A program made the position numbers and the translations under genes. A model generated the notes under the pieces. It was not told the origin of the DNA. It worked only from the letters and a program-made list of their open reading frames with translations, and did no database searches. Below, in pieces: positions 2,805 to 27,601 of a stretch of DNA of 64,000 nt; position 1 is the first letter of the stretch; each line of letters begins with the position of its first letter. The stretch spans positions 102 through 64,101 of the forward strand of contig CAYSZR010000002.1 of the NCBI GenBank assembly GCA_964435565.1, given 5' to 3'. This stretch comes from an uncultured Coriobacteriaceae bacterium (GTDB taxonomy: Bacteria; Actinomycetota; Coriobacteriia; Coriobacteriales; QAMH01).

Positions 2805-4058
2805 TTATTTGGCGCCCTTCAGAATGGTGCGTACAACGTTCTTGCCTGCGTGCTTCGCTTCGTAGAGCGCCCGATCGACGCGAAGATAGAGCGTGTCAAG
2901 ATCATCACCGGAATCTGCTTCGGTAACTCCCAGGCTGATGGTCTGCGGGCTTGCCTCGGGATAATCGAGGTTGCTGAAGCACTTTCGTATGCGTTCCGCT
3001 ACATCGCTTGCTTCTGGATCTTGTATGCCGGGAAGAAGCAGCATGAATTCTTCGCCGCCCCAACGGCCTGCAGAGAGGCTGTTCACGCCGTACTTTTCTC
3101 CATCGAGCAGAATGTTTGCAAGGCACTGGATAATGTAATCGCCCTGCCGATGACCGTAGGTGTCATTCAAGACTTTGAAATTGTCGATGTCGAGCATGAC
3201 AAGCGAGAAAGGCGACTCTTCCAGATTGCAAAGAGCTTCTTTAATGCGCCTTTGAATTTCCGTGCGGTTATACAGGCCGGTAAGACCGTCGATCGTCGAT
3301 GCCCGGTGCAGCTTCTTTTTCAGAAGCTCTTGTTCGGTGATGTCATAGATAAGCGCGATGATGCCGCTTGCCTTGCCATGTTCGTCGAGTATGGGCTCTT
3401 TGGTTATGTCATAGAACTCTTTGATACCGTCGGTGTTGATTTCGATCGTATAGCGTGTGCCCTGGCCGGTCTCAAGTATCTTTTTGTCTGCTTGCATGGC
3501 GAGAATCGCATTGTCTTTATCTTTGCGAATCTCTATATCGGTCTTGCCGCGAATCGTCCAGTTGGGATCATCGCTATAATCAAGGTGGTGCCAGTAATGT
3601 GTCGCAAAAATATACCTGCCTTCGGAATCCTTCATGAAGATATTGGAGGGCAGCACGTGCACGAGCTCAGAGAATTCATCGAAGGTCATTGAGTCTTTAA
3701 TATGAATAGCATTTGCGATGCGGTTTTGGACGACTACTGGGCATGCGGTTGCGCCGACAAGATCGAGGATTCCATGTTGCAGGGCATCAGCGGCTTCATC
3801 TTGCGAGGGAGCATCTGAAAGTCCCAAAATCGGTATGTAATCATATCTATGGTCGCTTGTTATCGCATTGATAAAGGCATAGTTGTCTGCAGAGGCCATA
3901 CGCAGGTCGACGAGCACTGCGCTGGTGGTCATATGATGAGTGTCGAGATAAGCAAGGGCATCTTCGCAGGTCTGGACCGTTACGTACGCATACTTGCCTT
4001 GCAGCATGTCGCGAATCCAGTATTGCGTTTGCGTGACCAGGAGCGCTGTTTTATCCAT
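2805..4058 (-). CDS. Diguanylate cyclase: receiver-like domain, PAS, GGDEF
   Basis: 417 aa with an intact GGEEF active site (RWGGEEFMLLLP) and a PAS-like segment. The N-terminal CheY-like fold lacks the usual acidic pair (LLVTQTQ). No RxxD I-site lies 5 residues upstream of GGEEF. Confidence 0.85.
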   Translation of the reverse strand: MDKTALLVTQTQYWIRDMLQGKYAYVTVQTCEDALAYLDTHHMTTSAVLVDLRMASADNYAFINAITSDHRYDYIPILGLSDAPSQDEAADALQHGILDLVGATACPVVVQNRIANAIHIKDSMTFDEFSELVHVLPSNIFMKDSEGRYIFATHYWHHLDYSDDPNWTIRGKTDIEIRKDKDNAILAMQADKKILETGQGTRYTIEINTDGIKEFYDITKEPILDEHGKASGIIALIYDITEQELLKKKLHRASTIDGLTGLYNRTEIQRRIKEALCNLEESPFSLVMLDIDNFKVLNDTYGHRQGDYIIQCLANILLDGEKYGVNSLSAGRWGGEEFMLLLPGIQDPEASDVAERIRKCFSNLDYPEASPQTISLGVTEADSGDDLDTLYLRVDRALYEAKHAGKNVVRTILKGAK

Positions 4059-12964: not shown

Positions 12965-13058
12965 ACAGCGTATTTTCAAAAGGGCGAATAGGCGAAACGA
13001 CGACACTCCGTTCATGGTTCTTACCTGCGTGAACGGTATAAACAAACACCTTATTTAA

Positions 13059-13068
13059 TGCTATAATA
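13059..13068 (+). promoter_or_regulatory. Candidate extended -10 promoter (TGcTATAAT) for the pilus operon
   Basis: TGCTATAAT at 13059-13068 lies in the AT-rich spacer, about 85 nt upstream of the first pilin GTG. No convincing -35 was found. Confidence 0.4.
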
Positions 13069-13153
13069 TAAAGGTTAAAAAGGGCTTGCAAGCGGGTCTT
13101 ATGTGCCTTGCGGGTTCTGAAGCGCATGTTGAACGTGTCAGCTGGGAGAGTGC

Positions 13154-16135
13154 GTGGTGATAAGCGGGCGTAACATAGCACGCGCACATCGGGGCTTCAC
13201 GATGATGGAGCTTCTGGCTGTTGTTGCGATTCTGGCGATTGTTGCGGCCATTGCGTTTCCTGCCGGCGCCAGTTTGGCCCGCTCTCTTGATATGACACGC
13301 AGAGACGATACGGCAAAGCAGATTTATCTCTCCGCGCAGACCAGGCTTACGGCCCTGCAGTCGAGCGGTCAATTAGACAATCTTTTTACGAACATCAAGG
13401 AAACAAAAGGCCCAAATTCGATAAGCAAGCCCTCTGATTATCCCGAAGATGATTATGCGGGCCGCGCTCTATATCAAGTTGCGAAATCTGACAACGCTAC
13501 GACTCAATATCTTGTTACGTCGAACGGCGACTTAATGACTTCGACGATGTCGGGCAGCTATATTATCGAGCTCAGCCCGTCAACTGGCGAAGTATATGGC
13601 GTGTTCTATTGGGACGACGCCTCTGATGGCAGCGCGGTTACGCACAGCTATGATGAAATCATAGGCCTCGTGGGCGACCGCACTCGAAGCGCGCGCGAAA
13701 AGGCTGGAATCGGATATTACGGCGGTGGCCCTGTAAGTGCAGCCATCAATCGCGGGGGCAAGATCTCCATTGATGACACGGACATTAAGACGGTTAACAG
13801 CGAAGAGCTCTATATCAAACTCACGAACAAATCATTTGGCAAAATCGTTCAGGAAGGCAAGACCGACAAACTCACAATTAACGTTACGGTCAGCGGACCG
13901 AAGCTGGGAGTAGGAAGTTGGTCGACGGCCACGAGGACACTTTCTTTTTCGGGGGCCGATCTTGGCATGACGTCGCAAAGCGACGAAGTGGATATTATCC
14001 TCGACAGCATGATCGACGGAAAGTCCTTCTATGACATTATCGATAAGGACCGCGCTTCAGGCGAGCAGATTCAGCCAGGAGCTGATATTACATATGATGT
14101 GACGATCACGTATGATGCCGTTGATTACAAGCTCGGTGGTTCAACTGTTAATTCACTGTATGGCAGTTTGGGGGCAAGCACGGCCAATCCGGGCAGCAAT
14201 CAGATAACTGTCTATGCTTTGCGCCACCTTAACAATATTCGTACTACTAAGCTGCACGGAATCATATGGGGTTCAAATAGCTTCAGGGACATCGTTTTCC
14301 AAAACAATACGTCGGAAACGTCAGACGATTTTATTGATTTCAATGCTGCAAGCTGGGCAAATACTAGCGTCTCCATCCCTAGTCGAGTCGGGGGCGTCTC
14401 GACCGGAGCTGCACAGAATCCCCTTGCTTCTACAACAACGAAGCTCATCTCATTGGATAACCTTGCCGTCGACGGAACCGCACTCAGTTCTGGTTCGGTG
14501 GTTACGGGTAACGGTTTTCTGCTTAAAAACTTCGAGGTCACCCAGGGTATAAGCGGTGCTACAGGATTGTTCGGTTCAGTAGGGCCTACTATTACGAGCC
14601 TGTATATGACCGATCCCATTGTGAAGGGCGGGAATAATACGGGCGCGCTGGTCGGGAATTTGACGAATGGCTCCGTTTCGAATTGCGGAGTGTATCTTAC
14701 GAGCGGGGCCGATCGTGCTAATCGCACGGTTTCCGGCGGAGAAAATAGTGGCGGGCTTGTGGGTACTGTAAATGGGGGAAGCTCTGGCATCTCAAGTTCA
14801 TTTGCCGCGATTGACGTTAATGGGACAACGACGGTCGGAGGGCTTGTCGGCCTTACTTCGAATGCCATCAGGCAGAGCTATTCTTCCGGAACTGTGAAGG
14901 CGACGGATTCAGGCGCAGGAGGGCTTGCCGGTAATGTCGCGCAAGGCGTAGACGTTGCGAATTGCTATACAACCTCGAATGTGTACTGTAATAGCCAAGC
15001 TGGTGCATTTGCCGGCACTCTTGGTAGTCTTAACGATAATAATTATGCCTACGGCTATACGGTTAAGGCCGATGGGACCGTCGATTCGACGTTTGCCAAT
15101 ACCACCTATGGTTTTGCCGGCGTGTCCGGACTAACCTCTTGGACTGTATACAAGAACGCATACTACCTGCGGGATGTTGGCTATAACTCGAATGTGACGG
15201 CATCGTTGTTTAAGACCAAGTCGTTCAGTGACGTTCAGTCAGTCAAAGGGTCTGCATATGTGTCCAAACCCTATGACTCAGCGCTATCGGGCAAGGCATT
15301 CCCGTTGATCGACCCGACGGGCATTGGCAGCCACTACGGCGACTGGCCGACTGAGATTGGCGTTCAGTGGCTTAACGGGAAAAACGAGCAGGTTGAAAGC
15401 TACTCAACGCTCACAGGCGCAATTCCAGAGTTTGTTAATTCGACGAGTCATCCCGCTCCTGACTACACGGCAACAAGCACTGACGGCCGCAAATATCTTG
15501 CCTTCTGGAACGGCAGTGGGACCAGGGACGATGAAGTATCGATGGCACTTGGTATGACCAAGAATACGGTCATTACCGCAACGTATGCATCGATTGCCTA
15601 TCCAGACTTTTCAACTATGGCAAACGCGCTGGCCAGCTCATGGACTGTGACCAACGGGAGCACGTCTACAAGCCCCGTTGCTTATTTGGGCAAATCAAAC
15701 AATCAGAAACAGATCGATTCGGAAGCTCCTTGGCTTGTGGGTAATTATGCGAACGCCGCCACGTCTATGCGGTCTTATCTTATATATCAGGGTTACTATA
15801 GTTCCGACTATGCGCAGCAGATTAGAAGTAACCCGACAGATGCAGCCGCCAACCACCCGGAGTACATTCCTTATTCGTTCCGCGTGGTGAAAGCTTCGGG
15901 CTCCAAGACGGATACCAAGGAGGAAGGTCGGTACCTTGTCTTTTTGGGCGAAAAGATTACGGACGGTATGGCGTCTTGCAATGTGATCAAATTTGACGTT
16001 GGCCGCTCGAATAATGGCAAGCCTGCTTTTCAGCGAGGGACTATAGACATTGGAACAACGACGCAGGTAGGGAAGACATACTCTCTGTATCTGGAGAACA
16101 CATTCACACCAACGAGCGCCTGGTTTACTTTGTAG
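13154..16135 (+). CDS. Giant modular type IV pilin-like protein (class III signal peptide plus GLUG-repeat module)
   Basis: The N-terminus MVISGRNIARAHRG/FTMMELLAVVAILAIVAAIAFP is a prepilin cleavage/methylation motif with Glu at +5. Residues about 350-625 carry GLUG-type repeats (TGLFG, GALVG, GGLVG x2, GGLAG, GAFAG). Length is 993 aa. Confidence 0.85.
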   Translation: MVISGRNIARAHRGFTMMELLAVVAILAIVAAIAFPAGASLARSLDMTRRDDTAKQIYLSAQTRLTALQSSGQLDNLFTNIKETKGPNSISKPSDYPEDDYAGRALYQVAKSDNATTQYLVTSNGDLMTSTMSGSYIIELSPSTGEVYGVFYWDDASDGSAVTHSYDEIIGLVGDRTRSAREKAGIGYYGGGPVSAAINRGGKISIDDTDIKTVNSEELYIKLTNKSFGKIVQEGKTDKLTINVTVSGPKLGVGSWSTATRTLSFSGADLGMTSQSDEVDIILDSMIDGKSFYDIIDKDRASGEQIQPGADITYDVTITYDAVDYKLGGSTVNSLYGSLGASTANPGSNQITVYALRHLNNIRTTKLHGIIWGSNSFRDIVFQNNTSETSDDFIDFNAASWANTSVSIPSRVGGVSTGAAQNPLASTTTKLISLDNLAVDGTALSSGSVVTGNGFLLKNFEVTQGISGATGLFGSVGPTITSLYMTDPIVKGGNNTGALVGNLTNGSVSNCGVYLTSGADRANRTVSGGENSGGLVGTVNGGSSGISSSFAAIDVNGTTTVGGLVGLTSNAIRQSYSSGTVKATDSGAGGLAGNVAQGVDVANCYTTSNVYCNSQAGAFAGTLGSLNDNNYAYGYTVKADGTVDSTFANTTYGFAGVSGLTSWTVYKNAYYLRDVGYNSNVTASLFKTKSFSDVQSVKGSAYVSKPYDSALSGKAFPLIDPTGIGSHYGDWPTEIGVQWLNGKNEQVESYSTLTGAIPEFVNSTSHPAPDYTATSTDGRKYLAFWNGSGTRDDEVSMALGMTKNTVITATYASIAYPDFSTMANALASSWTVTNGSTSTSPVAYLGKSNNQKQIDSEAPWLVGNYANAATSMRSYLIYQGYYSSDYAQQIRSNPTDAAANHPEYIPYSFRVVKASGSKTDTKEEGRYLVFLGEKITDGMASCNVIKFDVGRSNNGKPAFQRGTIDIGTTTQVGKTYSLYLENTFTPTSAWFTL

Positions 16136-16229
16136 CCGGTCTTATGAGGGAGAGATAATAGCCGACACACGACATATCGAAGAAAGAATCAAGAGCGAAC
16201 GCGGTGCTTCGATAATCATCGCGCTGGTT

Positions 16230-17252
16230 TTGCTGCTTATCTGCGCCATGGTCGCTGCTGTGGTGGTAAGCCTCGCCGCCTCAAACGCAAGCAGGAGCCC
16301 CCAGCACGTGAAAGAGGAGCAGGTGTATTTCACAGCAACTTCTGCCCTCAAGCTTGTTCAGGACTCTTTTTCTTCGACCGACAGCTGTTATCTTGATATG
16401 CCTACGGCTGGCACGTCCGTTTCTTCAGCGTTTACATACGGCAAGTTTTCTTCTACTAGTGACATCGGCAAATGGGCATACAAATGGACGACAACCATTT
16501 ATCAAGATTATGTTGCTGGAACGATTGGCTCGTATAGTGAGTCAAGCAGTTCCGAAGATTTTACCATCCATGCGGATAATTCTCTGATGAGTGGCAGCGA
16601 TGTGACGGTTCGTCTGACTATGAGCAAGGACTATACGATAAGCGCTTCCATTGTAAATGCTGATGAGAACTACAACTATGATTTGCAGGTTGAAATCCCC
16701 CTGTCTTCGAGCCAGTCGAAAGTGAATGTCGACTCAAGCGGCAAGCCTACGTATTCGTATGTGGTTTCTTGGGGAGCGGCTGTGAGTGGATATCCGACGA
16801 CGAAGGGCGCGCCTTATTACCAGCCCCAGGCGGCAGGTATTGCATCGGCAAATAGCCTTACTTCGGCAAGTGACCAAAATACGAAAAGCCTGCAGCAGCT
16901 ATATAAAAGTGCGAACGACAGTGCATATCCCAATATTACAGAGGAAGAAGCTGCCCTTAATTCCATTAGCGCTGGGCACGCAAGCGACTACGTATGGAAG
17001 CCGATTATTGCTACGGACGGGACGGTCATCTTAGCCGCCTGTAAAGCGAGCGGTCAGGGCGTTGGCGATGCTACGGGGACGATAATGATCTATGTCGATG
17101 GACGTTACTATAGCTGGAAAAAGCTTGTTTTTTTTGTCTATTATGATGATGTCACGACAATAGATTCTTCTGGATTTGACAAGGACCAAATAACCAATCT
17201 CTTCTTGTGGGGGCTACTTTGGAAGTGGGAGGAAGTGCAATGGAAAAACTGA
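16230..17252 (+). CDS. PilX/GspK-like pilus-associated protein (start codon uncertain)
   Basis: The canonical TTG start is at 16230. The same frame is open from 16071 and encodes ...SERGASIIIALVLLLICAMVAAVVV, a PilX_N-like anchor, upstream of any ATG/GTG/TTG. A GAGGGAGAG SD lies at 16146-16154. Confidence 0.6.
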   Translation: MLLICAMVAAVVVSLAASNASRSPQHVKEEQVYFTATSALKLVQDSFSSTDSCYLDMPTAGTSVSSAFTYGKFSSTSDIGKWAYKWTTTIYQDYVAGTIGSYSESSSSEDFTIHADNSLMSGSDVTVRLTMSKDYTISASIVNADENYNYDLQVEIPLSSSQSKVNVDSSGKPTYSYVVSWGAAVSGYPTTKGAPYYQPQAAGIASANSLTSASDQNTKSLQQLYKSANDSAYPNITEEEAALNSISAGHASDYVWKPIIATDGTVILAACKASGQGVGDATGTIMIYVDGRYYSWKKLVFFVYYDDVTTIDSSGFDKDQITNLFLWGLLWKWEEVQWKN

Positions 17253-17536
17253 CTCGACGTATTGCGAAGAACAACAGGGGCGAGACGATTGTCGAGACGC
17301 TTGCGGGTATTGTCGTATGCACCCTTGCGGTGTTGATCTTGGTAACGGCAACGGTTACGGCCGCAAGAATCAATAAGCAAGCCGAAGATCGAGATGCCCA
17401 GTTGAATGTCGAGCAGCTCCAAGCAGAAAAGAACGTTAATCCCCTGGCTACGGAAGGAACGGTTACATTTGGTGGCAGTTCTTTGACGGTTACCTATTAT
17501 GGAGGGGAGAGCATGACGTCCTACGTCATGAAGTAA
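17240..17536 (+). CDS. Minor pilin-like protein (atypical Glu at +1)
   Basis: MEKLTRRIAKNNRG/ETIVETLAGIVVCTLAVLILV has the G, Glu+5 and hydrophobic helix. The ATG at 17240 follows GGGAGGA and overlaps the previous gene by 13 nt. Confidence 0.7.
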   Translation: MEKLTRRIAKNNRGETIVETLAGIVVCTLAVLILVTATVTAARINKQAEDRDAQLNVEQLQAEKNVNPLATEGTVTFGGSSLTVTYYGGESMTSYVMK

Positions 17537-17539
17537 AGC

Positions 17540-18118
17540 ATGAGGCCTCTGCCGGTGATACAGAGCATCGAAAGGATTCGTTGCAGTGCTAAGCTCGGTT
17601 CACGCAGAACCGGCGGCTTCACATTGGTGGAGATGCTCGCTGCACTTGTTATCTTGATGCTTCTTACCGGGATAGTCACCATGGGCGTCAATCTGGGAAT
17701 GAAGACGTATCGCGAAGCAACGTTCGCATCGGAAAGCCAAATTCTGGCGGGTACCATTAACAGCGCTCTCTCAGATCCTTTCCGCAATATGACGTATACA
17801 GAAGACGCGTTGGGCAATAGGACCTATTCGATCGTGTATCGTGATGACGCGACAGGCGGGGCGGTTACTTCCCCTAGCCTGAAGGCTATTGATGGCCAGA
17901 TATATATACAGGGAAGTAATACGTCCGGCAATGGGATCGCACTTCTTAACAAGAAAGCTTATTCTGACTGTAAAGTTACCAGCATAAAGCTCGATGATTG
18001 TGATGGCGTGATAGTCTCGGGCACGTTTTCCATCCAAAGCACTGTCGATTCGAGTTTGAAGAAAGAGGATATAGCATTTTCCTTCGTGCCCATCAGTCCG
18101 ATTCATAAACCAAACTAA
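17540..18118 (+). CDS. Minor type IV pilin
   Basis: ...SRRTGG/FTLVEMLAALVILMLLTGIV is a canonical prepilin N-terminal cleavage/methylation motif. Confidence 0.8.
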   Translation: MRPLPVIQSIERIRCSAKLGSRRTGGFTLVEMLAALVILMLLTGIVTMGVNLGMKTYREATFASESQILAGTINSALSDPFRNMTYTEDALGNRTYSIVYRDDATGGAVTSPSLKAIDGQIYIQGSNTSGNGIALLNKKAYSDCKVTSIKLDDCDGVIVSGTFSIQSTVDSSLKKEDIAFSFVPISPIHKPN

Positions 18119-18145
18119 GATTAGGCTTAGAGGAGCAAACACACT

Positions 18146-19834
18146 ATGAAATACACCAGGCTCGGAGATCTTCTCGTCGATTCAGGACTCATCGACAACG
18201 ATCAGCTGAAAGACGCCCTAGCTGCTCAGAAGAAAACCAGGCAGCGTCTGGGTGAGACGCTCATTTCTGAGGGCATCATCACTGAGCGTCAGCTCATCAA
18301 TGCGCTCACCATGCAGTTGGGTATCGATTTCATCGACTTGACCACTGCCGATATTCTTCCAGAAATGACGCAGCTGGTCTCTAAGAACCTGGCAAAGAAG
18401 TATTCGGTCGTTCCCGTGAAAACCAAAGGCGACGAGCTGTATCTTGCTATGGCCGACCCGCTGAACTTCATTGCAACTGAAGAGATAAAGTCCGCTTCCA
18501 AAAAGCGCATTGTTCCCATGATCGCCACGCAATCCGCTATCGATCATGCCATCAGCGCCTTGTACGGCACCGAAGGCGCCAAGCGAGCTATTCGCGAGAT
18601 GCAGCAGGAAAACGAACGCGAGACAGCCTACACGGTTGGCGCGACTGCACAGATCGACGAAGCAGGGCAGGCGGCCCCTTCCATCCGCTTGGTCGACAGC
18701 ATCATCGAACGTGGTATTTCCGATCGCGCCAGCGATATCCACATCGAGCCGCAGGAAGGCGAAATGCTGGTACGCATGCGTGTCGACGGCATGCTGCATA
18801 ACGTGCTGACCATCCCCAAGGAATTGCAACAATCGGTAACCTCGCGCATCAAGATCATGTGCAATATGGATGTCACCGAACGTCGTGTTCCGCAGGACGG
18901 CCGCGCCATCGTCAGTGTTCGCATGAAGGAAGCAGACCTGCGCGCATCCACATTGCCCACGGTCCACGGTGAGAAGATCGTGCTTCGCATCCTTGATCGC
19001 AGCAACCAGCAGAACACAGCTGAAGAGCTGGGCTTTTATGGTACGAATCTGGAACGTTACAACAGGTTGCTCACGAATCGGCAGGGCGTTATCTTGCTGG
19101 TTGGCCCCACGGGTTCTGGTAAATCGTCCACCATGTTCACGATGATCCAGAAGCTCAATACCGAAGAGGTCAATATCGTCACGCTGGAAGACCCCGTCGA
19201 ATACAACATCGAAGGCGTCAACCAGGTGCAGGTAAACGAAAAGACCGGTACGTCGTTTGCCGGCGGCCTTCGATCCATCCTGCGTCAGGACCCCGACATC
19301 ATCGGCGTCGGCGAAATCCGCGATGCCGAAACAGCGGATATCGCCATGCGCGCTGCCGTCACGGGCCATTTGGTGGTCTCTACCGTACATACGAGCGACG
19401 CTGTATCCACGCTCGATCGTTTGGATGACATCGGCGTCGAGCCGTACATGATGGCAAGCGCTCTGAAAGGCGTCATCAGCCAGCGTTTGGTGCGCCGCAT
19501 CTGCCCGCATTGCCGCGAAGCTTATATGCCGACCCCCGAAGAGCTCGAGGGCCTGGGAATGGATCCCGCAGCCTTGGATGTGGAGTTCTACCGCGGCGCC
19601 GGTTGTTCTGAATGCTTCGGGAGTGGCTATAAGGGCCGCACCGTTGTGGCGGAAGTGCTGATGATCGACAAGGCCATGCGTCAGGCTATTCATGAGCAGC
19701 GCTCGCGCGAAGACCTGATGGTCGCCGTGCGCGCATCGGGTTTCCAGCCAATTATCCAGAATTGCCGCGAGCTGGTGCTGAATGGCATCACCACCGCGGA
19801 AGAGGCGTTCCGTACCATCTTCACGACCGACTAG
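18146..19834 (+). CDS. pilB: Type IV pilus assembly ATPase PilB (GspE family) with an MshEN-type N-terminal domain
   Basis: Walker A GPTGSGKS, Asp/His boxes, and the tetracysteine motif CPHC...CSEC. The N-terminal domain has two RLGxx(L/V/I)... motifs. Confidence 0.95.
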   Translation: MKYTRLGDLLVDSGLIDNDQLKDALAAQKKTRQRLGETLISEGIITERQLINALTMQLGIDFIDLTTADILPEMTQLVSKNLAKKYSVVPVKTKGDELYLAMADPLNFIATEEIKSASKKRIVPMIATQSAIDHAISALYGTEGAKRAIREMQQENERETAYTVGATAQIDEAGQAAPSIRLVDSIIERGISDRASDIHIEPQEGEMLVRMRVDGMLHNVLTIPKELQQSVTSRIKIMCNMDVTERRVPQDGRAIVSVRMKEADLRASTLPTVHGEKIVLRILDRSNQQNTAEELGFYGTNLERYNRLLTNRQGVILLVGPTGSGKSSTMFTMIQKLNTEEVNIVTLEDPVEYNIEGVNQVQVNEKTGTSFAGGLRSILRQDPDIIGVGEIRDAETADIAMRAAVTGHLVVSTVHTSDAVSTLDRLDDIGVEPYMMASALKGVISQRLVRRICPHCREAYMPTPEELEGLGMDPAALDVEFYRGAGCSECFGSGYKGRTVVAEVLMIDKAMRQAIHEQRSREDLMVAVRASGFQPIIQNCRELVLNGITTAEEAFRTIFTTD

Positions 19835-19861
19835 CGCATGGGCAAGAAGGGGGCAAACCAT

Positions 19862-20914
19862 ATGACAGCACTCGACAGCATCATATCCCACGCCAATGAA
19901 AGGCGAGCTTCTGATATACATATCGCCGCTGGGGTTCCCGTTCGCTTTCGTATCGACGGACGTTTAGTCGATGCAGATGATCGCGTCTTGGAAGCTGAAG
20001 ATTGCGAGCAGCTGGGCAAGATCGCGGCGGGTGACGATTTCGAGAAGATCGCCAGAATCGGTGAATTGGACATGGCAGACACCTATGCCGGCTCCATTCG
20101 TTGCCGCTTGAACCTCTATCGCAGTCAAGGCAATATCTGCATCGCCATCCGCTTGCTCTCCAACGTCATTCCCGACCTGGATACGCTTGGCTTGCCGCCC
20201 ATCATGTTGGATTTTCCCACCTATAACAAGGGTATCGTCATTGTCACGGGTGAAACGGGGTCGGGCAAATCGACCACGCTGGCATCGATATTGAACGAAG
20301 TCAATAAAACGCGTTCTGACCATATCATCACCTTGGAAGACCCCATCGAATATATCTATACGCCGCAGAAATGCAGCATCGACCAGCGTGAGATCGGCCA
20401 TGATACCCACAGCTATGCCGACGGCCTGCGCGCCATCTTGCGCGAAGACCCCGACGTCATTCTGATCGGCGAGATGCGCGACCTCGATACGATTGAAACC
20501 GCGTTGACCGCGGCCGAAACGGGCCACTTGGTCTTTGGAACCTTGCATACGCAAAGCGCCGCCGATTCCATCGATCGTTTGGTCGACGTGTTTCCCGAAG
20601 GCCGCCAGCGTCAGATTCGCCTGCAGCTTTCCATGACGCTCGTGGCCGTGGTGTCGCAGCAGCTGCTGGTGCGCCGCGAAGGCACGGGGCGTGCAGTGGC
20701 ATGCGAAGTCATGATGGTGAACCCCGCCATCCGCAACCTCATTCGCGAGGGAAAGACCCCGCAGATCGAGAACACTTTGGCAACTACGGCAGAGCTGGGC
20801 AGCATCACCATGGACAACATGCTCATTCGTATGGTTCGCAATCGCACCATTTCTCCGCAGACTGCTGTCGAGGCGGCGCACGACCCCGAATATGTGAAGC
20901 GTAACGCCCGATAG
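19862..20914 (+). CDS. pilT: Pilus retraction ATPase PilT
   Basis: About 350 aa with Walker A GETGSGKST and a PilT-type AIRNLIREGK motif. The ATG at 19862 lies about 9 nt after AAGGGGG; an alternative ATG is at 19838. Confidence 0.95.
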   Translation: MTALDSIISHANERRASDIHIAAGVPVRFRIDGRLVDADDRVLEAEDCEQLGKIAAGDDFEKIARIGELDMADTYAGSIRCRLNLYRSQGNICIAIRLLSNVIPDLDTLGLPPIMLDFPTYNKGIVIVTGETGSGKSTTLASILNEVNKTRSDHIITLEDPIEYIYTPQKCSIDQREIGHDTHSYADGLRAILREDPDVILIGEMRDLDTIETALTAAETGHLVFGTLHTQSAADSIDRLVDVFPEGRQRQIRLQLSMTLVAVVSQQLLVRREGTGRAVACEVMMVNPAIRNLIREGKTPQIENTLATTAELGSITMDNMLIRMVRNRTISPQTAVEAAHDPEYVKRNAR

Positions 20915-20941
20915 CGACGGCGCGTCAGGAAGGCACGGCAT

Positions 20942-22147
20942 ATGAAGACGTTCAATTACAAAGCCAGGACTGAAACAGGTTCCACCATCGACGGCGTTGC
21001 CGAGGCGAATACGCGCGAAGAGGCGGTATTGAACCTGAAAGACGCTGGCCTTATTGTCGAGTCCATTGCCGAATCCGGCGGCGAACATGACATCGACTTG
21101 CGCTTGGGTGGTCGCAAAGCCAAGGAAAAATCCCTGGCCATCATGTGCAATCAGTTTGCCATCATCTTGACGGCGGGCATGCCCATCGTTCGCACATTGC
21201 AGCTAGTGGCCAATCAGACGGAAGACAAGACGCTGAAAAGCATCTTGGGCGATGTGGCTGACGACGTTGCTGCAGGTTATAGTCTGGCCGATAGTTTTGC
21301 CAAGCATGGCAAGGGTTTGCCGGTCACCTTTGTGGAAACGGTGCGCGCGGGCGAGGCCTCTGGCAACCTGGACGTGGTGTTTCGGCGCCTGAGCGATTTT
21401 TACGAAAAGTCCAGCAAGACGAAATCCAAAGTGAAATCTGCGATGATCTATCCCGCTTTTGTCGTGTGCATTGCTGTTGTGGTTATCGCCATTATCATGA
21501 TTTTCGCCGTTCCTACGTTTACTTCAACGTTTGCAACAATGGGTGTGCAGCTGCCTTGGATCACCCAGTTTATGATCGATGGATCGGCCTTCCTGACACA
21601 TAACATCCTCTTCATCATTGGCATCATCATCGTGCTGGTCATTGCAGTAAAGGTGGCCAAGAAAAATGATGATTTCCGTTTGAAATGGAGCAGCATCGGT
21701 GTGCGCGTTCCCGTCATCGGCCGCATCAACCTTATGAATGCTGCCAGTCAATATTCGGGTACCATGGGCGTCATGATGGAAGCGGGCCTTTCGGTTATCA
21801 GCGCCGTGGGCGTTACCGCGCGGTCTATGAGCAACTATTATATGGGGCATGAACTGGCTGCCACGCAGACTGACCTGGAATCGGGCAAGCCGCTGGCCTC
21901 GTGTCTGGCAAAAGCCGATATCTTTCCCGAGTTGGTTACCGAAATGACCGGCGTGGGCGAACAGACGGGCTCGCTGGAACATACCTTGACCGTGCTTTCT
22001 GAATATTACGATAATGAGGTGGAGACAGCCAGTTCGCGCGCGCTGTCTATTTTAGAACCGCTCATCATTGTCATTCTGGCGGTTGTTGTGTGTGGCATTT
22101 TATTGGCGGTATATCTGCCCATGTTCAGCCTATATGGAAATATGTAA
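20942..22147 (+). CDS. pilC: Type IV pilus platform protein PilC (GspF family)
   Basis: 401 aa with two GspF repeats and 3 TM segments, typical of T2SSF. Confidence 0.95.
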   Translation: MKTFNYKARTETGSTIDGVAEANTREEAVLNLKDAGLIVESIAESGGEHDIDLRLGGRKAKEKSLAIMCNQFAIILTAGMPIVRTLQLVANQTEDKTLKSILGDVADDVAAGYSLADSFAKHGKGLPVTFVETVRAGEASGNLDVVFRRLSDFYEKSSKTKSKVKSAMIYPAFVVCIAVVVIAIIMIFAVPTFTSTFATMGVQLPWITQFMIDGSAFLTHNILFIIGIIIVLVIAVKVAKKNDDFRLKWSSIGVRVPVIGRINLMNAASQYSGTMGVMMEAGLSVISAVGVTARSMSNYYMGHELAATQTDLESGKPLASCLAKADIFPELVTEMTGVGEQTGSLEHTLTVLSEYYDNEVETASSRALSILEPLIIVILAVVVCGILLAVYLPMFSLYGNM

Positions 22148-22195
22148 GGCTGGGTTACGGCGTTTGTGAGGGCGAAACGGAGCAATTATCAGGAT

Positions 22196-22225
22196 ATTGT
22201 ACAGTCCGTGACGTTGAACTATAAT
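22196..22225 (+). promoter_or_regulatory. Candidate sigma70-type promoter for pilA (TTGTAC-18-TATAAT)
   Basis: TTGTAC at 22196-22201 and TATAAT at 22220-22225, about 95 nt upstream of the pilA ATG. Confidence 0.4.
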
Positions 22226-22321
22226 GTAGGTTGCATAAATGGATGAGGGCTTCCTTCTCAGACGGGTTTCAACCCGGCCCGAAACCTAGAGGGACCGCCT
22301 AAGAAGACAAAGGAGGCTCAT

Positions 22322-22750
22322 ATGAAAGAAATGATCCAAGCTCGTAAAGAGCAGCTTCAAGAGCGCGGCGTCAAGGGTTTTACCCTGATGGAAATGCTGA
22401 TTGTCGTCGCTATCATTGCCGTGTTGGTCGCTATTGCAATTCCTATCTTTACGTCGCAGCTTAATAATTCCAAGGTGCAGGCAGACGCTGCAAATATTCG
22501 CTCTGGCTATGCCCAGGTTTCGGCAACTGTTCTGACGGCGTCACCGGCGCCCGCTACTGGTGCAACGTATGGTCTGAATACTGATGGCACTATTACTACT
22601 GGCTCAACGGGGGACTTTAAGGCTCAAGGAAAGCCAAGTGCTGCAGAATCTATTGGTGGATCATCGATTACGTGGGATGTTGGTCAAACGCCGACTTATA
22701 CTTGGGATGGCTCAAAGATAGTTATTACGATGGCTGCTGTGACTCCCTAG
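22322..22750 (+). CDS. pilA: Major type IV pilin PilA
   Basis: MKEMIQARKEQLQERGVKG/FTLMEMLIVVAIIAVLVAIAIPIF. Length is 142 aa, with a strong RBS (AAGGAGG), its own promoter and a terminator. Confidence 0.85.
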   Translation: MKEMIQARKEQLQERGVKGFTLMEMLIVVAIIAVLVAIAIPIFTSQLNNSKVQADAANIRSGYAQVSATVLTASPAPATGATYGLNTDGTITTGSTGDFKAQGKPSAAESIGGSSITWDVGQTPTYTWDGSKIVITMAAVTP

Positions 22751-22788
22751 TCGAGCTTGCATGAACCGTGGGTTGCGGTTCTAAAAAA

Positions 22789-22821
22789 CAGGGTCCGGAG
22801 AAATCCGGGCCCTGTTTTATT
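22789..22821 (+). terminator. Rho-independent terminator after pilA
   Basis: CAGGGTCCGG-agaaat-CCGGGCCCTG forms a 10-bp stem with one G-T pair, followed by TTTTATT. Confidence 0.7.
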
Positions 22822-22891
22822 CTCGGTGCCCGCCTTCATTTCGATGCGATGGTATGCTTATAGCATCTTCAACTGAAAGGCGTCCACGCTC

Positions 22892-23767
22892 ATGTTGCTC
22901 TATGCCACACCTGCCATTACCGCATACGTGCTTGTGTTGACTGCCGTTGTTGGTTTGGTCATGGGTAGCTTTCTTAACTGTTGGGCATGGCGCATCACGC
23001 ATCATGAATCCGTTATGCACGGTCGCTCGCATTGCATCACGTGCAATCACATTCTTGCCGTACGTGATCTTGTTCCCGTGTTCAGTTGGCTTTCAACCAA
23101 GGGCACCTGCCGCTATTGCGGGCAGAAAGTGTCCGCTCGCTATCCGCTGGCGGAGCTTTTTTGCGCTGTGGTGTTCGTGTCCATCGTCATGCGTTACAAC
23201 ATCAGTCTGGAAGCGGCGCAGCTGCTGTGTTTCGCATCCATCTTGCTGGTGCTCTCTCTTACAGACTTAGACGATTACATCATTCCCAATGGCTGCATTA
23301 TCGCAGCCATTATCGTGCGTGTGCTCTACATCGTGGCGTCAGGGCTGCTTGTTGGAACGGATATGCTTACGCTGGCACTCGATTCCCTGTTAGGTGGCGT
23401 GGCGGTGTTCGTTCCGTTGCTGTTAGTGGTGTTGGTCGCTGATAAGTTGCTGGGTCGCGACAGCATGGGTGGCGGCGACTTGAAGCTCTTCTTTGTGGCA
23501 GGTCTCTATTTTGGCTGGCAGCAATGCCTGTTCCTGGTTATTGTGGCCTGCGTTATCGGCATCGTGTTGGCTCTTATCGTTCCAGCTGAATCAGCGGAAA
23601 ACTTGCAAGATTCCCAGGGTGCTTCCCAGCCTGATGAAGCCGATTCCTCTTCGCTTTCCGCAAAAGCGCAGCGTCTCATTCCGTTCGGTCCCTCCATTGC
23701 CCTTGCATGTTGGATTACCTGCTTGTGCGGCGGCCCGCTTGTCTCGTGGTATTTGGGACTATTCTGA
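22892..23767 (+). CDS. pilD: Prepilin peptidase/N-methyltransferase PilD (A24 family)
   Basis: The N-terminal Zn-like motif CITC...CRYC is present, with multiple TM segments and GGGDLKLF containing the catalytic Asp. Confidence 0.9.
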   Translation: MLLYATPAITAYVLVLTAVVGLVMGSFLNCWAWRITHHESVMHGRSHCITCNHILAVRDLVPVFSWLSTKGTCRYCGQKVSARYPLAELFCAVVFVSIVMRYNISLEAAQLLCFASILLVLSLTDLDDYIIPNGCIIAAIIVRVLYIVASGLLVGTDMLTLALDSLLGGVAVFVPLLLVVLVADKLLGRDSMGGGDLKLFFVAGLYFGWQQCLFLVIVACVIGIVLALIVPAESAENLQDSQGASQPDEADSSSLSAKAQRLIPFGPSIALACWITCLCGGPLVSWYLGLF

Positions 23768-23870
23768 TTCTAGGAACTATTGCGCCTTAACCTGCGAATT
23801 TGTATGAAAAGCGCTACAATGAATAATTGATGAGCAATGGTGCAGGCAACACACAGGGGAAAGGAAGCCC

Positions 23871-24878
23871 ATGTCGTCGTTTGTGGGAATTGACATCGGC
23901 AACAATAACTGCAAAATCGCAGTTCGCGAAGGTGGTTCCATTCGTTTGGTGTCACGTCGCATGCCTGAGAATATGGTGAAGTCGGGCGAAGTGACGGCAC
24001 CTGAAACCATGGCTACCTTTCTGAAAGAAGTACGCCAGACGGAAAATATTCACGATCGCGACTGCGTGCTGGTATTGGCAGAATCGCAAACGTACTTTCG
24101 CCATGTCACACTGCCGGCTATGACCGTGGGCGAGCTTGAACTGAACCTCCCATACGAATTTCGCGACTTCATTGCTGGCGACCCCAGCGAATATGTATAT
24201 GACTATTCCGTTGATGAAATGGTCAACGATGAAACGGGCAAACCGCAACGGCTCGAGCTCTACGCCGCCGCTGCTGAAAAGGCGATGGTCGATAGATATT
24301 CTGGCATGTTGCGCAAAGCAGGATTTCGGCTGAAGGCGGTTGTGCCGGCTCCTATGGCATATTCCCGCTTACTGCGTGCGCATATCGACGCAAACCCCGA
24401 CGATGAGAATAAGGACATCGTCTTGGTGGACATTGGCCATGCCGACGCAACCGTTATGCTGTATCGTGGGGCGCATTATGAAGCCATGAAGACCGTCGAT
24501 TTTGGGTGCGATGAATTCGACGACACCATTGCGGTTTTGAAGAACATCGACCCCTATACGGCAAGCAGCTACAAATATTCCAATTTCGAAGGCGTGCTCG
24601 ACTCGCCTGAATGTCGGTCCATTTGCGATCGGTTTGCGCTAGAAGTGAACAAAGTCGTCAATTTCTATAACTTTAATAATCCCGATAAGGACATCGAGCA
24701 GATGTACTTCTTAGGTGGTGGCGCGCAGATTCCGCAGTTGACGAACGTAATTGCCGAGGCGGTGTCTATCCCGGCTCAAAGTGTGGAAGCTCTGCTACCG
24801 GCAGATGTGCAAGATCTTCTGAACGGCCCCGTATGCACGCTGGCGGTTGCCGGCATGCTTGAAGGCGAGGCGATGTAG
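23871..24878 (+). CDS. pilM: Pilus assembly protein PilM (actin-like ATPase fold)
   Basis: FVGIDIGNNNCKIAV N-terminal phosphate-1-like motif. Its size and its position ahead of the PilN/PilO-like genes fit PilM. Confidence 0.85.
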   Translation: MSSFVGIDIGNNNCKIAVREGGSIRLVSRRMPENMVKSGEVTAPETMATFLKEVRQTENIHDRDCVLVLAESQTYFRHVTLPAMTVGELELNLPYEFRDFIAGDPSEYVYDYSVDEMVNDETGKPQRLELYAAAAEKAMVDRYSGMLRKAGFRLKAVVPAPMAYSRLLRAHIDANPDDENKDIVLVDIGHADATVMLYRGAHYEAMKTVDFGCDEFDDTIAVLKNIDPYTASSYKYSNFEGVLDSPECRSICDRFALEVNKVVNFYNFNNPDKDIEQMYFLGGGAQIPQLTNVIAEAVSIPAQSVEALLPADVQDLLNGPVCTLAVAGMLEGEAM

Positions 24879-24879
24879 C

Positions 24880-25476
24880 ATGGCGCTGGACTGGAACAAA
24901 TCGCTCAGCTTTGGCGGTTCTTCGAAGAAGGCGGCCGAATACCCCACGAAGACCATCATCAATCTGAATACGGTTACCTCCACAGCAGTTGACCCACGCA
25001 AAGCCATCATCCTTGGCGTGATCTTGGCCGTTTTGGTGGGCTGCTTCGTCAAATTTGGCGTTATGGATTTCTATGGGCAGGTCTCTGCCAAGCAAGCCGA
25101 GCTTTCGCGCCAGCAGGCAACGCTTGCCCAGGTCGAAAGCAAGCTCGCGAATTACGATTCTATTAAGGCAGAATACGAAAGCTACGGGTCGTATCTTTCA
25201 GGCAGCAGTGCTGCGGCGGTTGATGCCATTACGGTGCTCAATCTGATAGACCAGCAGATCATGCCTGTTGCGAAGGTGACCTCGGTCACGCTGAAGGATA
25301 ATTCGCTCTCGCTTTCTTTGACGAACGCGAGCTTGAGTACCATCGGCAATCTGGTCAACACGCTGTCTGCTCAGTCCATCGTTTCCAATGTGTCCGTTTC
25401 GACCGCCGCCACCAACGCGACGGCAGCTCAGGATGTGACCGCCACCATGGTCATCACCCTGAAGCAGGCAAGCTAG
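24880..25476 (+). CDS. pilN: PilN-like bitopic pilus alignment protein
   Basis: The ATG at 24880 lies 1 nt after the pilM stop. It has a short cytoplasmic N-terminus, a single TM helix, a coiled coil and a C-terminal beta-rich domain. Confidence 0.65.
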   Translation: MALDWNKSLSFGGSSKKAAEYPTKTIINLNTVTSTAVDPRKAIILGVILAVLVGCFVKFGVMDFYGQVSAKQAELSRQQATLAQVESKLANYDSIKAEYESYGSYLSGSSAAAVDAITVLNLIDQQIMPVAKVTSVTLKDNSLSLSLTNASLSTIGNLVNTLSAQSIVSNVSVSTAATNATAAQDVTATMVITLKQAS

Positions 25477-25488
25477 GAGGGGGCGGCA

Positions 25489-26082
25489 ATGCTGACGTAT
25501 ACGTTTTCCAAACGCGAGAAAGTGATGCTGGCTGCGCTGGCCTGTATCTTGGTGTTGGTTGCCTGGTACATGCTTGTCTTTCAGAACGTGAACAACCAAG
25601 TGTCTTCGCTTAATAGCCAGATAGCAACGGTACAGGATCAAACCACGGTTGATTCGGCCAAACTCGCTCAGATGAATACGATGCAGAAGGCCATCGATGA
25701 CAGCAAGGCCAAGGGCTTGAAGGCCACGGCTCTTCCCACGTATGACAACGTGCAGGCGCTGATGGCGTCTTTGAATACGACGCTTGCTTCCACCAACAAT
25801 TACTCGCTTGCGTTCGATAATCTGGACCGTAGCGAATCGAAGCTGGTGAAGCGTGGTGTGACCATGACGTTTGGTTGCAATAGCTATGCCGATGCAAAGA
25901 CCATCATCACTGCCATCAAGCAGGGTACCTATCCATGCACGATCGACTCGGTCAGCATGACCGACAACACGGTGAAGACGACGAGCTCCTATTCGAACGC
26001 GGGCAGCGGATCGTCCAGCGCTGCGTCGAGCTCGAACTATGGCGTGTCGATGCACGTGACGTATTTCGAGAAGGCTTCGTAG
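25489..26082 (+). CDS. pilO: PilO-like bitopic pilus alignment protein
   Basis: The N-terminal TM (MLAALACILVLVAWYMLVF) is followed by a coiled coil. Gene order is pilM-pilN-pilO. Confidence 0.65.
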   Translation: MLTYTFSKREKVMLAALACILVLVAWYMLVFQNVNNQVSSLNSQIATVQDQTTVDSAKLAQMNTMQKAIDDSKAKGLKATALPTYDNVQALMASLNTTLASTNNYSLAFDNLDRSESKLVKRGVTMTFGCNSYADAKTIITAIKQGTYPCTIDSVSMTDNTVKTTSSYSNAGSGSSSAASSSNYGVSMHVTYFEKAS

Positions 26083-26167
26083 CTTTCCGTTGCAACCTGT
26101 CCGTTAACGCAAAGAAGCGTTTTGTCTTTTACCGAATACCTTTCGCCCGTCGGGCAGAGGTGGATAA

Positions 26168-27601
26168 ATGCGGTACAATCGTTTCGAGAGCTGGGCCTTG
26201 AGTGGAACAGGAACGCAGCATATGGATAAACATGAAGTTCCCACTGTCATAGGCACAATCGACCATCTGTCGCACCCGGGCTTTTCTTTCGCCGTAAGCG
26301 ACGCCGATGAAGCGTGCTCGTCAAACGATGCCGCCATCGGCCTTTTCAACGCTCTTGCAGAGCAGGTTAACCTTTTCCCCGGCGGGCTTGTCCGCTATGA
26401 CGCAGATGAGAAAAGTGGCTATCACGTGACCATGGTGAGCCAGTCTTTTCTTGATATGCTCGGGTTCGAGTCGGTGGATGACTTCGCCCGGAAATTCGAT
26501 TGCAGATATGATCGAATCGTCTTTGGGGATGATCGTGAGCGTACCTTAGAGCTTATACGGTCGGAAAACCCGATCAGGACGACTGACTTCAATCTATATC
26601 GCCTTATCAAGGCAGACGGCAGCCCGCTGTGGGTTTATGGCCGGGGTGGGGTCGTTGACGATGGCACTGGCCATAAGTCGGTCTATGTCATCTTGCTCGA
26701 TGCGCAGGAATTTATGGAAGAACAGGCGGTCTTGCGTTGGCAGAAAACCAAGCTCGATCTGCTCGAGGGCATTCCTGGAATCGTCTCGTTTGACTATGAC
26801 CCCGCAACTGATGTTTTTACCGCTTCGTTTTCAAATCGCGAAGGCGAGACGGTGCGCCATAGCTACGAGCATTTCGTCGAGGATGCGGGCGAAAAAGAAT
26901 GGATCGCCAAGGAAAGCCTGGGCGAATTCGCAAATGTGAGCAGCTTGGTTTTGGGCGAAAGCGCCATGAGCGAATTCGAAGTGCGAATCAACGTCGGTGA
27001 TATGGGCTTTGACTGGTACCAGGCAGCCTGCAAGAGCGTCACTGACAACAATGACAAGGTGTACCGCGTCGTTGGACGCGCGATTAACATCGAGCATTAC
27101 AAGCAGCAGGTCAGCAAATGGCAAGAACGCGCCCGGCACGATTCGCTTACGGGCGTTGCGAACCACGGTTGGCTTATCGAGAGCATGCGCAGGGAACTTA
27201 CGCGCAACGGTTCTGGCACGCTGATCATGATAGACATCGATGATTTCAAGGGCGTGAACGACGCATGCGGTCATCTTAAAGGCGACGACGTACTGCGCAG
27301 CGTGGCTATGGCGCTTCTGGATGCGTTTCGTGCGACAGACATCATTGGGCGCTATGGTGGCGATGAGTTCGCGGTTTTCCTTCCGTGCGTGACGGACAGA
27401 GAACTCGCCAGAAGGCGCGCGAAAGACATCATGAAGAGGATCAGCCTGCTGGGCGATGACTTTGGGATCGATATCACTGCGAGCGTCGGCGTAAAAATCG
27501 TCGATGGCGGCGATTGCACTCCCGAGCAATTCATCAAGGAAGCTGATACTGCGCTCTATAAATCCAAGCGCAATGGCAAAGATAGGTGCACGTTCGCCTA
27601 G
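26168..27601 (+). CDS. Diguanylate cyclase (PAS-like domains plus GGDEF with RxxD I-site)
   Basis: RATDIIGRYGGDEFAVFLP shows an intact GGDEF with RxxD exactly 5 residues upstream. The ATG at 26168 follows AGAGGTGG. It lies 85 nt after pilO on the same strand. Confidence 0.85.
   Translation: MRYNRFESWALSGTGTQHMDKHEVPTVIGTIDHLSHPGFSFAVSDADEACSSNDAAIGLFNALAEQVNLFPGGLVRYDADEKSGYHVTMVSQSFLDMLGFESVDDFARKFDCRYDRIVFGDDRERTLELIRSENPIRTTDFNLYRLIKADGSPLWVYGRGGVVDDGTGHKSVYVILLDAQEFMEEQAVLRWQKTKLDLLEGIPGIVSFDYDPATDVFTASFSNREGETVRHSYEHFVEDAGEKEWIAKESLGEFANVSSLVLGESAMSEFEVRINVGDMGFDWYQAACKSVTDNNDKVYRVVGRAINIEHYKQQVSKWQERARHDSLTGVANHGWLIESMRRELTRNGSGTLIMIDIDDFKGVNDACGHLKGDDVLRSVAMALLDAFRATDIIGRYGGDEFAVFLPCVTDRELARRRAKDIMKRISLLGDDFGIDITASVGVKIVDGGDCTPEQFIKEADTALYKSKRNGKDRCTFA

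Follow-up and report, generated by a model that had tools for sequence, protein, structure and literature searches.

Genes that probably encode a retractile type IVa pilus of monoderm design in an uncultured Coriobacteriia bacterium of the gut

A 64,000-nt stretch of contig CAYSZR010000002.1, from an uncultured gut member of the Coriobacteriia, very probably encodes a retractile type IVa pilus (T4aP) of the monoderm design in one chromosomal cluster of genes. The pil locus spans positions 13154–27601 on the + strand of this stretch (the window, whose positions serve as coordinates throughout). Fourteen genes follow one another there, with no gene of note on the opposite strand: five prepilin-like genes, pilB, pilT, pilC, pilA, pilD and pilM/N/O, then a gene for a PAS-GGDEF protein. 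Every gene named in a preliminary description of this DNA was recovered in its place on the + strand when the products were scanned against the Pfam and NCBIfam domain libraries and, for class III signal peptides, with a motif scan. The library scan assigned most genes, pilN being left without a Pfam match. The features are as follows (an arrow in a pilin motif marks the cleavage site).

13039..13067, +: promoter-like site, TAAACA-17-TATAAT with TG, 5′ of the first pilin gene (consensus scan, 10/12)
13154..16135, +: giant modular minor pilin, 993 aa, G↓FTMME (N_methyl, TIGR02532)
16158..17252, +: gene 2, minor pilin-like, with G↓ASIIIALV but without Glu5, start codon uncertain (sequence and motif scan)
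17240..17536, +: small minor pilin, gene 3, G↓ETIVE (motif scan)
17540..18118, +: minor pilin, gene 4, GG↓FTLVE (N_methyl, 27 bits)
18146..19834, +: PilB extension ATPase with N-terminal MshEN domain (T2SSE, 420 bits; MshEN, E=1e-20)
19838..20914, +: PilT retraction ATPase (TIGR01420, PilT/PilU, 425 bits; cutoff 319)
20942..22147, +: PilC platform protein (T2SSF in two stretches, 193 bits)
22198..22225, +: promoter-like site 5′ of pilA, TGTACA-16-TATAAT (consensus scan, 10/12)
22322..22750, +: PilA, major pilin candidate, 142 aa, KG↓FTLME (N_methyl, 30 bits)
22785..22818, +: intrinsic terminator or attenuator 3′ of pilA (RNA fold versus shuffles)
22892..23767, +: PilD prepilin peptidase / N-methyltransferase (A24_N_bact, 98 bits; Peptidase_A24, 54 bits)
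23871..24878, +: PilM actin-like assembly protein (PilM_2, 70 bits; cutoff 27)
24880..25476, +: PilN-like bitopic protein (profile-to-PDB match, position, topology)
25489..26082, +: PilO-like bitopic protein (T2SSM-like, 26.9 bits, just below cutoff)
26168..27601, +: PAS-GGDEF diguanylate cyclase (GGDEF, 121 bits; PAS_3, 29 bits)

What can be observed directly is which genes are there, that their motifs are intact, what they are homologous to, which taxon they come from, and that the gene cassette is conserved. The locus holds the parts by which a T4aP is recognized (class III pilins, an A24 peptidase, PilB and PilC, PilMNO, and PilT), and all of its catalytic and signature motifs are intact. 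The preliminary description had called the set complete, retraction ATPase included, and this stands, with PilT above its curated cutoff and PilMNO supported as described below. PilM-PilN-PilO is a marker specific to T4aP (Pelicic 2019, PMC6916266; Denise et al. 2019, PMC6668835).

The best model for PilB is TIGR02538 (564 bits; equivalog cutoff 676). The protein has the Walker A, His box and tetracysteine motifs, and its best PDB match is Thermus PilF (E=7.6e-152). PilT carries Walker A, Walker B, a His box and AIRNLIRE at residue 297, and is best matched in the PDB by Aquifex PilT (E=2e-91). The PilC and GspF models of NCBIfam both match PilC over its full length. PilD shows CITC...CRYC (CxxC...CxxC), DLD and GGGDLK, with both catalytic-Asp contexts present, and is predicted to be an A24 prepilin peptidase of the bifunctional type. 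Relatives were drawn from one genome per GTDB species, the best 80 of 418 PilB matches being used, and the window belongs to a group of them that we call clade A (see below). When the locus is compared with its clade A relative L006, PilT is conserved at 86% and PilB at 82%, the pilins at only 24–43%; this combination of conserved motors and diverging pilins is what one sees in a system that is under selection.

PilM is matched by TIGR01175 at 105 bits (cutoff 133). A profile of PilN and 16 orthologues has M. xanthus PilN (3jc8) as its top match in the whole PDB, at E=0.063; the protein has a transmembrane segment, a coiled coil and a conserved N-terminal P-x-K-T-x-x-N-L motif, whose N-L aligns to the INLLP that is the PilM-binding motif, and pilM and pilO flank its gene. 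For PilO, the profile matches M. xanthus PilO, in the same 3jc8 entry, over nearly the full length (E=1.8e-5).

Five class III signal peptides were found by the motif scan (G↓FTMME, G↓ASIII, G↓ETIVE, GG↓FTLVE and KG↓FTLME). Glu5 is present in four of the five, the G↓ASIII peptide being the one that lacks it, and N_methyl or TIGR02532 matches fall on three proteins (those starting at 13154, 17540 and 22322); genes 2 and 3, prepilin-like in the motif scan, are missed by the domain libraries. Depending on the start codon, leaders are ~14 aa in the giant pilin, at most 17 in gene 2, 14 in gene 3, 21–26 in gene 4 and 16–19 in PilA, and the mature pilins span 84–979 aa. The range of 13–26 aa given in the preliminary description is therefore right. 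Its view that such leaders depart from T4aP custom is not: in monoderms, type IVa pilins come with long leaders and from clustered genes, the old short-leader definition being obsolete (Pelicic 2019, PMC6916266). Equally long leaders occur in the relatives from both Coriobacteriia and Clostridia. PilA, whose mature protein has 123 aa and no cysteine, aligns its mature residue F20 with residue 1 of pilins from solved filaments, e.g. Thermus PilA5 and Streptococcus sanguinis PilE1; at the sequence level our comparison with S. sanguinis covers the PilE1 N-terminus only. Gene 3 encodes a mature protein of ~84 aa whose family conserves G↓(E/D)(T/S)xxE in 22 related loci; it has no relative in a Pfam scan or a profile search of the PDB. 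Gene 4 gives weak N-terminal matches to ComGF, ComGD and GspG in NCBIfam.

The first pilin gene encodes the giant product of the set, with its class III signal peptide, a pilin module, immunoglobulin (Ig)-like domains, a beta-helix of the GLUG type and a C-terminal region that is variable. Its relatives have 970–1640 aa and many are annotated with both N_methyl and PF07581 (GLUG); the window protein itself matches GLUG weakly (E=0.008). An AlphaFold2 (AF2) model built on a 24-sequence alignment (predicted local distance difference test score, pLDDT, 74; predicted template modeling score, pTM, 0.64) has a long alpha1 helix at residues 17–71, a small sheet domain, then beta-sandwich domains, and a beta-helix at 449–632 with pLDDT >90, the C-terminal domains being less confident. 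It has the build of a modular type IV pilin, in which N_methyl, alpha1 helix and head are followed here by the GLUG beta-helix. Foldseek gave as best PDB matches 3n6z, a Bacteroides ‘putative IgA1 protease’ fragment (template modeling score, TM, 0.57 on the target), as well as the immunoglobulin A1 (IgA1) protease of S. pneumoniae. We rejected identification as an M26 IgA1 metalloprotease: the fold matches fall on the GLUG beta-helix part and the sequence has no HExxH motif, and for these reasons we treat the giant pilin as a binding or scaffold module. Modular pilins consist of a pilin module with a grafted effector domain that is most probably displayed at the tip, and the IPR012902-IPR011493 (N_methyl) architecture is represented by 6 proteins in Dataset S1 of the same survey, where it is called M26-related (Raynaud et al. 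2021, PMC8179133). The giant pilin would be the tip-displayed binding module of this pilus.

We infer from these genes that a filament would be formed in the following way. PilD would cut the long leaders of the five prepilins after Gly-1 and N-methylate the new N-terminus. The four minor pilins encoded 5′ of pilB would assemble as a priming or tip complex, and a PilB hexamer would rotate the PilC platform, held by a PilM-PilN-PilO subcomplex, so as to polymerize PilA beneath the tip. The 993-aa pilin would then show its GLUG beta-helix and variable C-terminal region at the end of the filament for ligand binding. Depolymerization by PilT would bring retraction, and hence pulling, twitching or tight adhesion. 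Extension would probably be licensed by cyclic dimeric GMP (c-di-GMP) acting on the MshEN domain of PilB, with the adjoining PAS-GGDEF cyclase, perhaps co-regulated with the pilus, as the likely source. A secretin would not be needed, because there is no outer membrane to cross.

The link to c-di-GMP begins with PilB. An MshEN domain is recognized by two 24-residue RLGxx(L/V/I)(L/V/I)xxG...Q motifs set 5 residues apart, and PilB has two perfect copies, at residues 5–28 and 34–57, separated by KKTRQ. It also matches the NF053729 c-di-GMP motif (E=1.2e-19), and 15 PilB sequences from Coriobacteriia do not vary at the MshEN motif residues. MshEN domains of V. cholerae MshE, C. perfringens PilB2 and M. 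xanthus PilB bind c-di-GMP (PMC11656802). Because PilB carries the perfect motif, second-messenger gating of extension is likely, and from the sequence the most likely mode of regulation would be post-translational control of extension by c-di-GMP. We are less sure of the pairing of PilB with the adjoining cyclase, in which both the GGDEF active site and the RxxD I-site are intact (RATDIIGRYGGDEF at residue 388). Control at the RNA level was also considered: no c-di-GMP riboswitch was found 5′ of pilA or of the operon at Rfam gathering thresholds, and a C. difficile-like riboswitch was rejected, the only match at E≤1 being a chance-level one of 20 bits inside pilN.

The window encodes three GGDEF proteins in total and one EAL domain. 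Two genes on the − strand, 7–10 kb 5′ of the pil operon, encode a REC(weak)-PAS-GGDEF protein (2805–4058) and a membrane GGDEF-EAL protein (4209–6131); judged by this upstream pair of turnover genes, the actinobacterium seems to have an active c-di-GMP network. In a second group of Coriobacteriia, clade B below, a convergent GGDEF gene stands directly 3′ of pilO (L047, L056, L057 and L073, at ~17.7–19.0 kb of each locus; Enteroscipio and Gordonibacter). GGDEF genes thus recur beside these operons in an arrangement unlike that of the window.

The preliminary description had the genes run without interruption, which is true of gene order and strand; they would not make one transcript, given the promoter-like site before pilA and the strong terminator after it. 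The minor pilin genes, pilB, pilT and pilC are packed tightly, with gaps of −13 to 27 nt, as are pilM, pilN and pilO. The promoter-like site of pilA lies in a 174-bp gap; such sites are weak evidence, as their total in the region does not exceed that in shuffles. The hairpin at 22785–22818 has a 15-bp GC-rich stem between an A-tract and a U-tract and folds at −60.5 kcal/mol (z = −4.58; none of 200 shuffles folds as well). Being symmetrical, it looks like a bidirectional intrinsic terminator. A hairpin of this kind after pilA is a typical device for making far more pilin than machinery. The cyclase gene starts 85–139 nt after pilO and is possibly a separate transcription unit, with a weak terminator-like hairpin before it (26106–26121) where the fold is not better than that of shuffles.

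Several points weigh against a working pilus built and regulated in this way. The pilus would be one known from its genes alone. PilB, PilC and PilM fall under NCBIfam equivalog or subfamily cutoffs, which for these proteins were trained largely on diderm sequences, and the E-value of 0.063 behind PilN is weak. Gene 2 has no canonical start ahead of its signal peptide; should its product not arise as a prepilin, the complex at the tip may lack a member. The cyclase on the same strand is peculiar to this species, there being none in the other clade A loci, and it may be separately transcribed. Finally, c-di-GMP left the ATPase rate of C. perfringens PilB2 unchanged in vitro (PMC11656802), and for that reason its ‘gating’ here may be indirect.

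The best-surviving alternative, though an improbable one, is that the machine serves mainly in DNA uptake (natural transformation), as Com or Thermus type IVa pili do. Retractile T4aP take up DNA in several phyla, and the best sub-threshold N-terminal matches of PilA and the minor pilins in NCBIfam are ComGC, ComGD, ComGE and ComGF. However, the ComG equivalog cutoffs are not reached (ComGA 267 versus 300 bits, ComGB 141 versus 240, ComGC 41.5 versus 75), and the locus has PilT and PilMNO, which are absent from Com systems; on these grounds a ComG competence pilus was rejected. Ligand binding is instead what the conserved, adhesin-like giant pilin suggests, and no comEA or comEC gene was found in the 64-kb window.

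Less probable still is that the locus is a decaying or silent remnant which makes no pilus, a reading in which the start of gene 2 would mark loss of function. The frame of gene 2 is open from 16071, yet neither ATG nor GTG nor TTG occurs in it ahead of the class III motif (RG↓ASIIIALV). The first canonical start is a TTG at 16230, within the hydrophobic segment, and gene callers begin the protein at residue 35 of the mature form. There is, however, an in-frame ATA at 16158, 5 nt 3′ of a GGGAG Shine-Dalgarno-like site, and the start region (16071–16230) has the same sequence in five independent metagenome contigs. Homologues of gene 2 that occupy the corresponding place in loci of Coriobacteriia and Clostridia have normal leaders of ~13 aa. 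Either a rare start codon is in use or the product is not a prepilin in this species. Several clade A relatives, which lack pilD and pilMNO within 10 kb of pilB, might also suggest erosion; but in the window all the other 13 genes are full length with catalytic motifs intact, and the motors are highly conserved relative to the nearest relatives.

Assignment of genes 2 and 3 to the GspK/PilX and GspI classes by homology was tried and rejected, since the family profiles found no PDB relatives, and neither window protein has a Pfam match. One homologue of gene 2 weakly matches PilX_N (E=0.007), a precomputed PilJ_C match for gene 2 is faint, and its single-sequence AF2 model (pLDDT 36.5) is unusable. 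The class labels of both genes, such as PilX/GspK-like for gene 2, are therefore analogies.

Because a taxonomy based on PilB could be circular had the operon been transferred, we examined TyrS (46758–47987), which is 87% identical to a cluster holding MEI3377412.1, from a ‘Coriobacteriales bacterium’. The 30 closest PilB loci (66–82% identity) are all titled as Coriobacteriia or other Actinomycetota metagenome-assembled genomes (MAGs), among them Eggerthellaceae, Atopobiaceae, Coriobacteriaceae, Denitrobacterium, Olsenella and unnamed Actinomycetota, many from the gut of ruminants or deer. Five metagenome contigs of this one species carry PilB at 100% identity. The GC content of the operon is 52.4%, that of the remaining window 54.0%. 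In the Eggerthellaceae MAG L011, argC-argJ-argB lie directly 3′ of pilO (18647–21686) and are 52–59% identical to the arg genes of the window, where the arg operon stands 7.6 kb 3′ of pilO and the interval holds genes for the cyclase, TerC, RNase D and a Zn-peptidase as well as xseA and ackA. TyrS, the closest PilB loci and this pil-arg synteny place the host in the Coriobacteriia and not in a Firmicute, in line with the preliminary placement from its neighboring genes.

The pilB-pilT-pilC-pilA-pilD-pilMNO order recurs in Coriobacteriia MAGs, in cultured Eggerthellaceae (Paraeggerthella hominis, P. hongkongensis, Enteroscipio rubneri, Raoultibacter massiliensis, Gordonibacter), and in Oscillospiraceae, Lachnospiraceae and other Clostridia. 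Common to all three groups is the cassette of four genes 5′ of pilB, encoding a giant pilin, a G↓AS pilin without Glu5, a small pilin with G↓(E/D)TxxE and one with G↓FTLVE; operon and cassette together were seen in ~20 related loci. The resemblance to clostridial and streptococcal loci proposed in the preliminary description is borne out on the clostridial side by the same gene order and cassette in Oscillospiraceae and Lachnospiraceae. In seven clade A loci with at least 9 kb of 3′ flank (L006, L009, L024, L026, L028, L029 and L034), neither pilD nor pilMNO was detected 3′ of pilB-pilT-pilC(-pilA), and the machine appears to be split between loci in those genomes.

A neighbor-joining tree of concatenated PilB, PilT and PilC (64 taxa, 1305 columns, 100 bootstraps) joins the window with 23 Coriobacteriia MAGs in clade A at 100% support, which is also 100% when L036, titled Actinomycetota, is added. 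Seven cultured-type Eggerthellaceae form clade B, again at 100%, and clades A and B are grouped together in 0 of 100 bootstraps. Clade B is nested among Oscillospiraceae, its identity to Clostridia being 57% versus 52% to clade A. The tree shows that Coriobacteriia hold two separate lineages of the pilus machine, with at least one exchange with Clostridia likely; being distance-based, without outgroups, and drawn from the best 80 of 418 matches, it gives neither the direction of transfer nor the origin of clade A.

That the contig or the operon is really clostridial, through mis-binning of a Firmicute or very recent transfer from Oscillospiraceae, is highly improbable: the nearest PilB sequences outside Coriobacteriia do come from Oscillospiraceae and other Clostridia (57–62% identity) with the same operon layout, and clade B is nested among Clostridia, but TyrS of the same contig groups with a Coriobacteriales-named protein, the GC content of the operon is close to that of its surroundings, clade A (24 Coriobacteriia sequences plus L036) stands at 100% support apart from all Clostridia sampled, the window and L011 have pil-arg synteny in common, and the best matches of a flanking NlpC/P60 protein are the actinobacterial DIP1281/RipC models.

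Going beyond the retractile pilus itself, clade A could be an old, vertically inherited actinobacterial T4aP lineage with real twitching or retraction-driven adhesion, switched by c-di-GMP, whose GLUG tip pilin binds a ligand in the gut such as a host glycoprotein or IgA, plant fiber, or partner microbes. On this view the lineage would be no recent acquisition from Clostridia. We regard this fuller account as speculative and, taken as a whole, unlikely. If true, it would provide the first T4aP function shown in Actinomycetota and a new class of tip adhesin, in a class of bacteria described as non-motile.

Some other genes and proteins met in the course of the analysis deserve mention. A secreted Phage_lysozyme2 and NlpC/P60 protein with a long Ser/Thr-rich linker is encoded on the + strand at 11099–12964, 190 bp 5′ of the pil operon; it was considered as a dedicated partner for opening the cell wall and rejected, as the adjacency is not kept in related loci. 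On the − strand, 49904–55045 encodes a 1713-aa surface protein with a TED_2 thioester domain, a SpaA fold and eight T-Q ester-bond domains (PF18202, 709 bits), which is of the covalent-adhesin type known from Gram-positives. Also on the − strand, 60962–62647 encodes a full-length GH3-family protein with all three Pfam GH3 domains, here in a gut actinobacterium; GH3 is an acyl-acid amido synthetase family best known from plants. The ENA protein P0017, of 843 aa, shares 60% identity with PilB across 92% of the query, and it has many extra P-loop domain matches; it may be a PilB-PilT fusion, or an artifact of assembly or gene calling.

Pili of this superfamily studied so far in Actinobacteria are all of type IVc (Pelicic 2019, PMC6916266); the preliminary description named sortase pili and Tad/Flp (IVc) pili as those usually described there. 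T4aP in Actinobacteria had already been reported from genome surveys (Denise et al. 2019, PMC6668835), and the portion of that survey's supplements available to us does not mention these Coriobacteriia genera. A full-text literature search turned up no publication in which type IV pili are connected with genera of Coriobacteriia. The system was initially called poorly described for the class. This is right in that it is experimentally unstudied, and overstated in that the locus is widespread, cultured type strains included, and that surveys had recorded T4aP (PMC6668835); ‘poorly described’ here means never tested, not unknown. Among the Coriobacteriia are common gut organisms of importance for the metabolism of drugs and polyphenols, such as relatives of Eggerthella, Gordonibacter and Paraeggerthella, and their surface attachment and colonization are almost unstudied. 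A retractile pilus, a second-messenger input and a giant tip pilin are concrete candidates for adhesion and surface motility, and because cultured relatives carry a sister version of the locus the idea is directly testable. To the pilus field the window adds little conceptually, the design being the known monoderm one; the GLUG-led four-gene minor-pilin cassette and the evidence for two lineages are useful additions.

Type II secretion was rejected: the GspE and GspF models score below their cutoffs (549 versus 630 and 329 versus 424 bits), the GspG, GspH, GspI and GspJ models match window proteins at the N-terminus only, and the locus has no secretin and does have PilT. The Tad/Flp pili of Bifidobacterium breve and Micrococcus luteus come from the same phylum and belong to the same filament superfamily, but to a different subtype. 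The TadA model reaches 44–46 bits versus a cutoff of 373. The locus has no Flp mini-pilin, its mature pilins having 84–979 aa, and a single PilC-type platform in place of a TadB/TadC pair, together with PilT and PilMNO; a type IVc pilus was rejected accordingly. The core proteins are homologous to those of diderm T4aP (Myxococcus xanthus, Thermus thermophilus, Pseudomonas, Neisseria), as seen in PDB matches to Thermus PilF, to M. xanthus PilB, PilN and PilO, and to Aquifex and Geobacter PilT, and M. xanthus PilB likewise binds c-di-GMP through MshEN. Unlike the diderm systems, the window locus has no PilQ, PilP, TsaP or PilY1, its genes are clustered, and its leaders are long.

Among the closest known systems is the T4aP of S. 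sanguinis, also monoderm, encoded at a single locus, with long leaders and retraction driven by PilT (PMC6916266, PMC8179133), as is predicted for the window system. Both have bulky modular minor pilins for which a tip location has been proposed (PMC6916266, PMC8179133), the modules being vWA (PilB) and lectin (PilC) in S. sanguinis and GLUG beta-helix, Ig-like and variable domains within the 993-aa protein of the window. S. sanguinis has two major pilins and the window one candidate, and the window PilB has the MshEN c-di-GMP motif. Closest in design are the clostridial T4aP, such as those of the C. perfringens pilB2 locus and the C. difficile primary pil locus and the cellulose-binding pili of Ruminococcus albus, which are likewise monoderm, secretin-free and encoded in one cluster, with PilB, PilC, PilD, PilM, PilN, PilO, PilT and long-leader pilins. 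C. perfringens PilB2 is of the MshEN type like the window PilB (PMC11656802). The differences are that the window host belongs to Actinomycetota, that a PAS-GGDEF gene stands 3′ of its operon, and that C. difficile has a c-di-GMP riboswitch before pilA where the window has none. Identity to the clostridial relatives is 57–62% for PilB and 25–35% for PilN and PilO, and the closest of all non-actinobacterial relatives, those in Oscillospiraceae, have an identical gene order and the same minor-pilin cassette.

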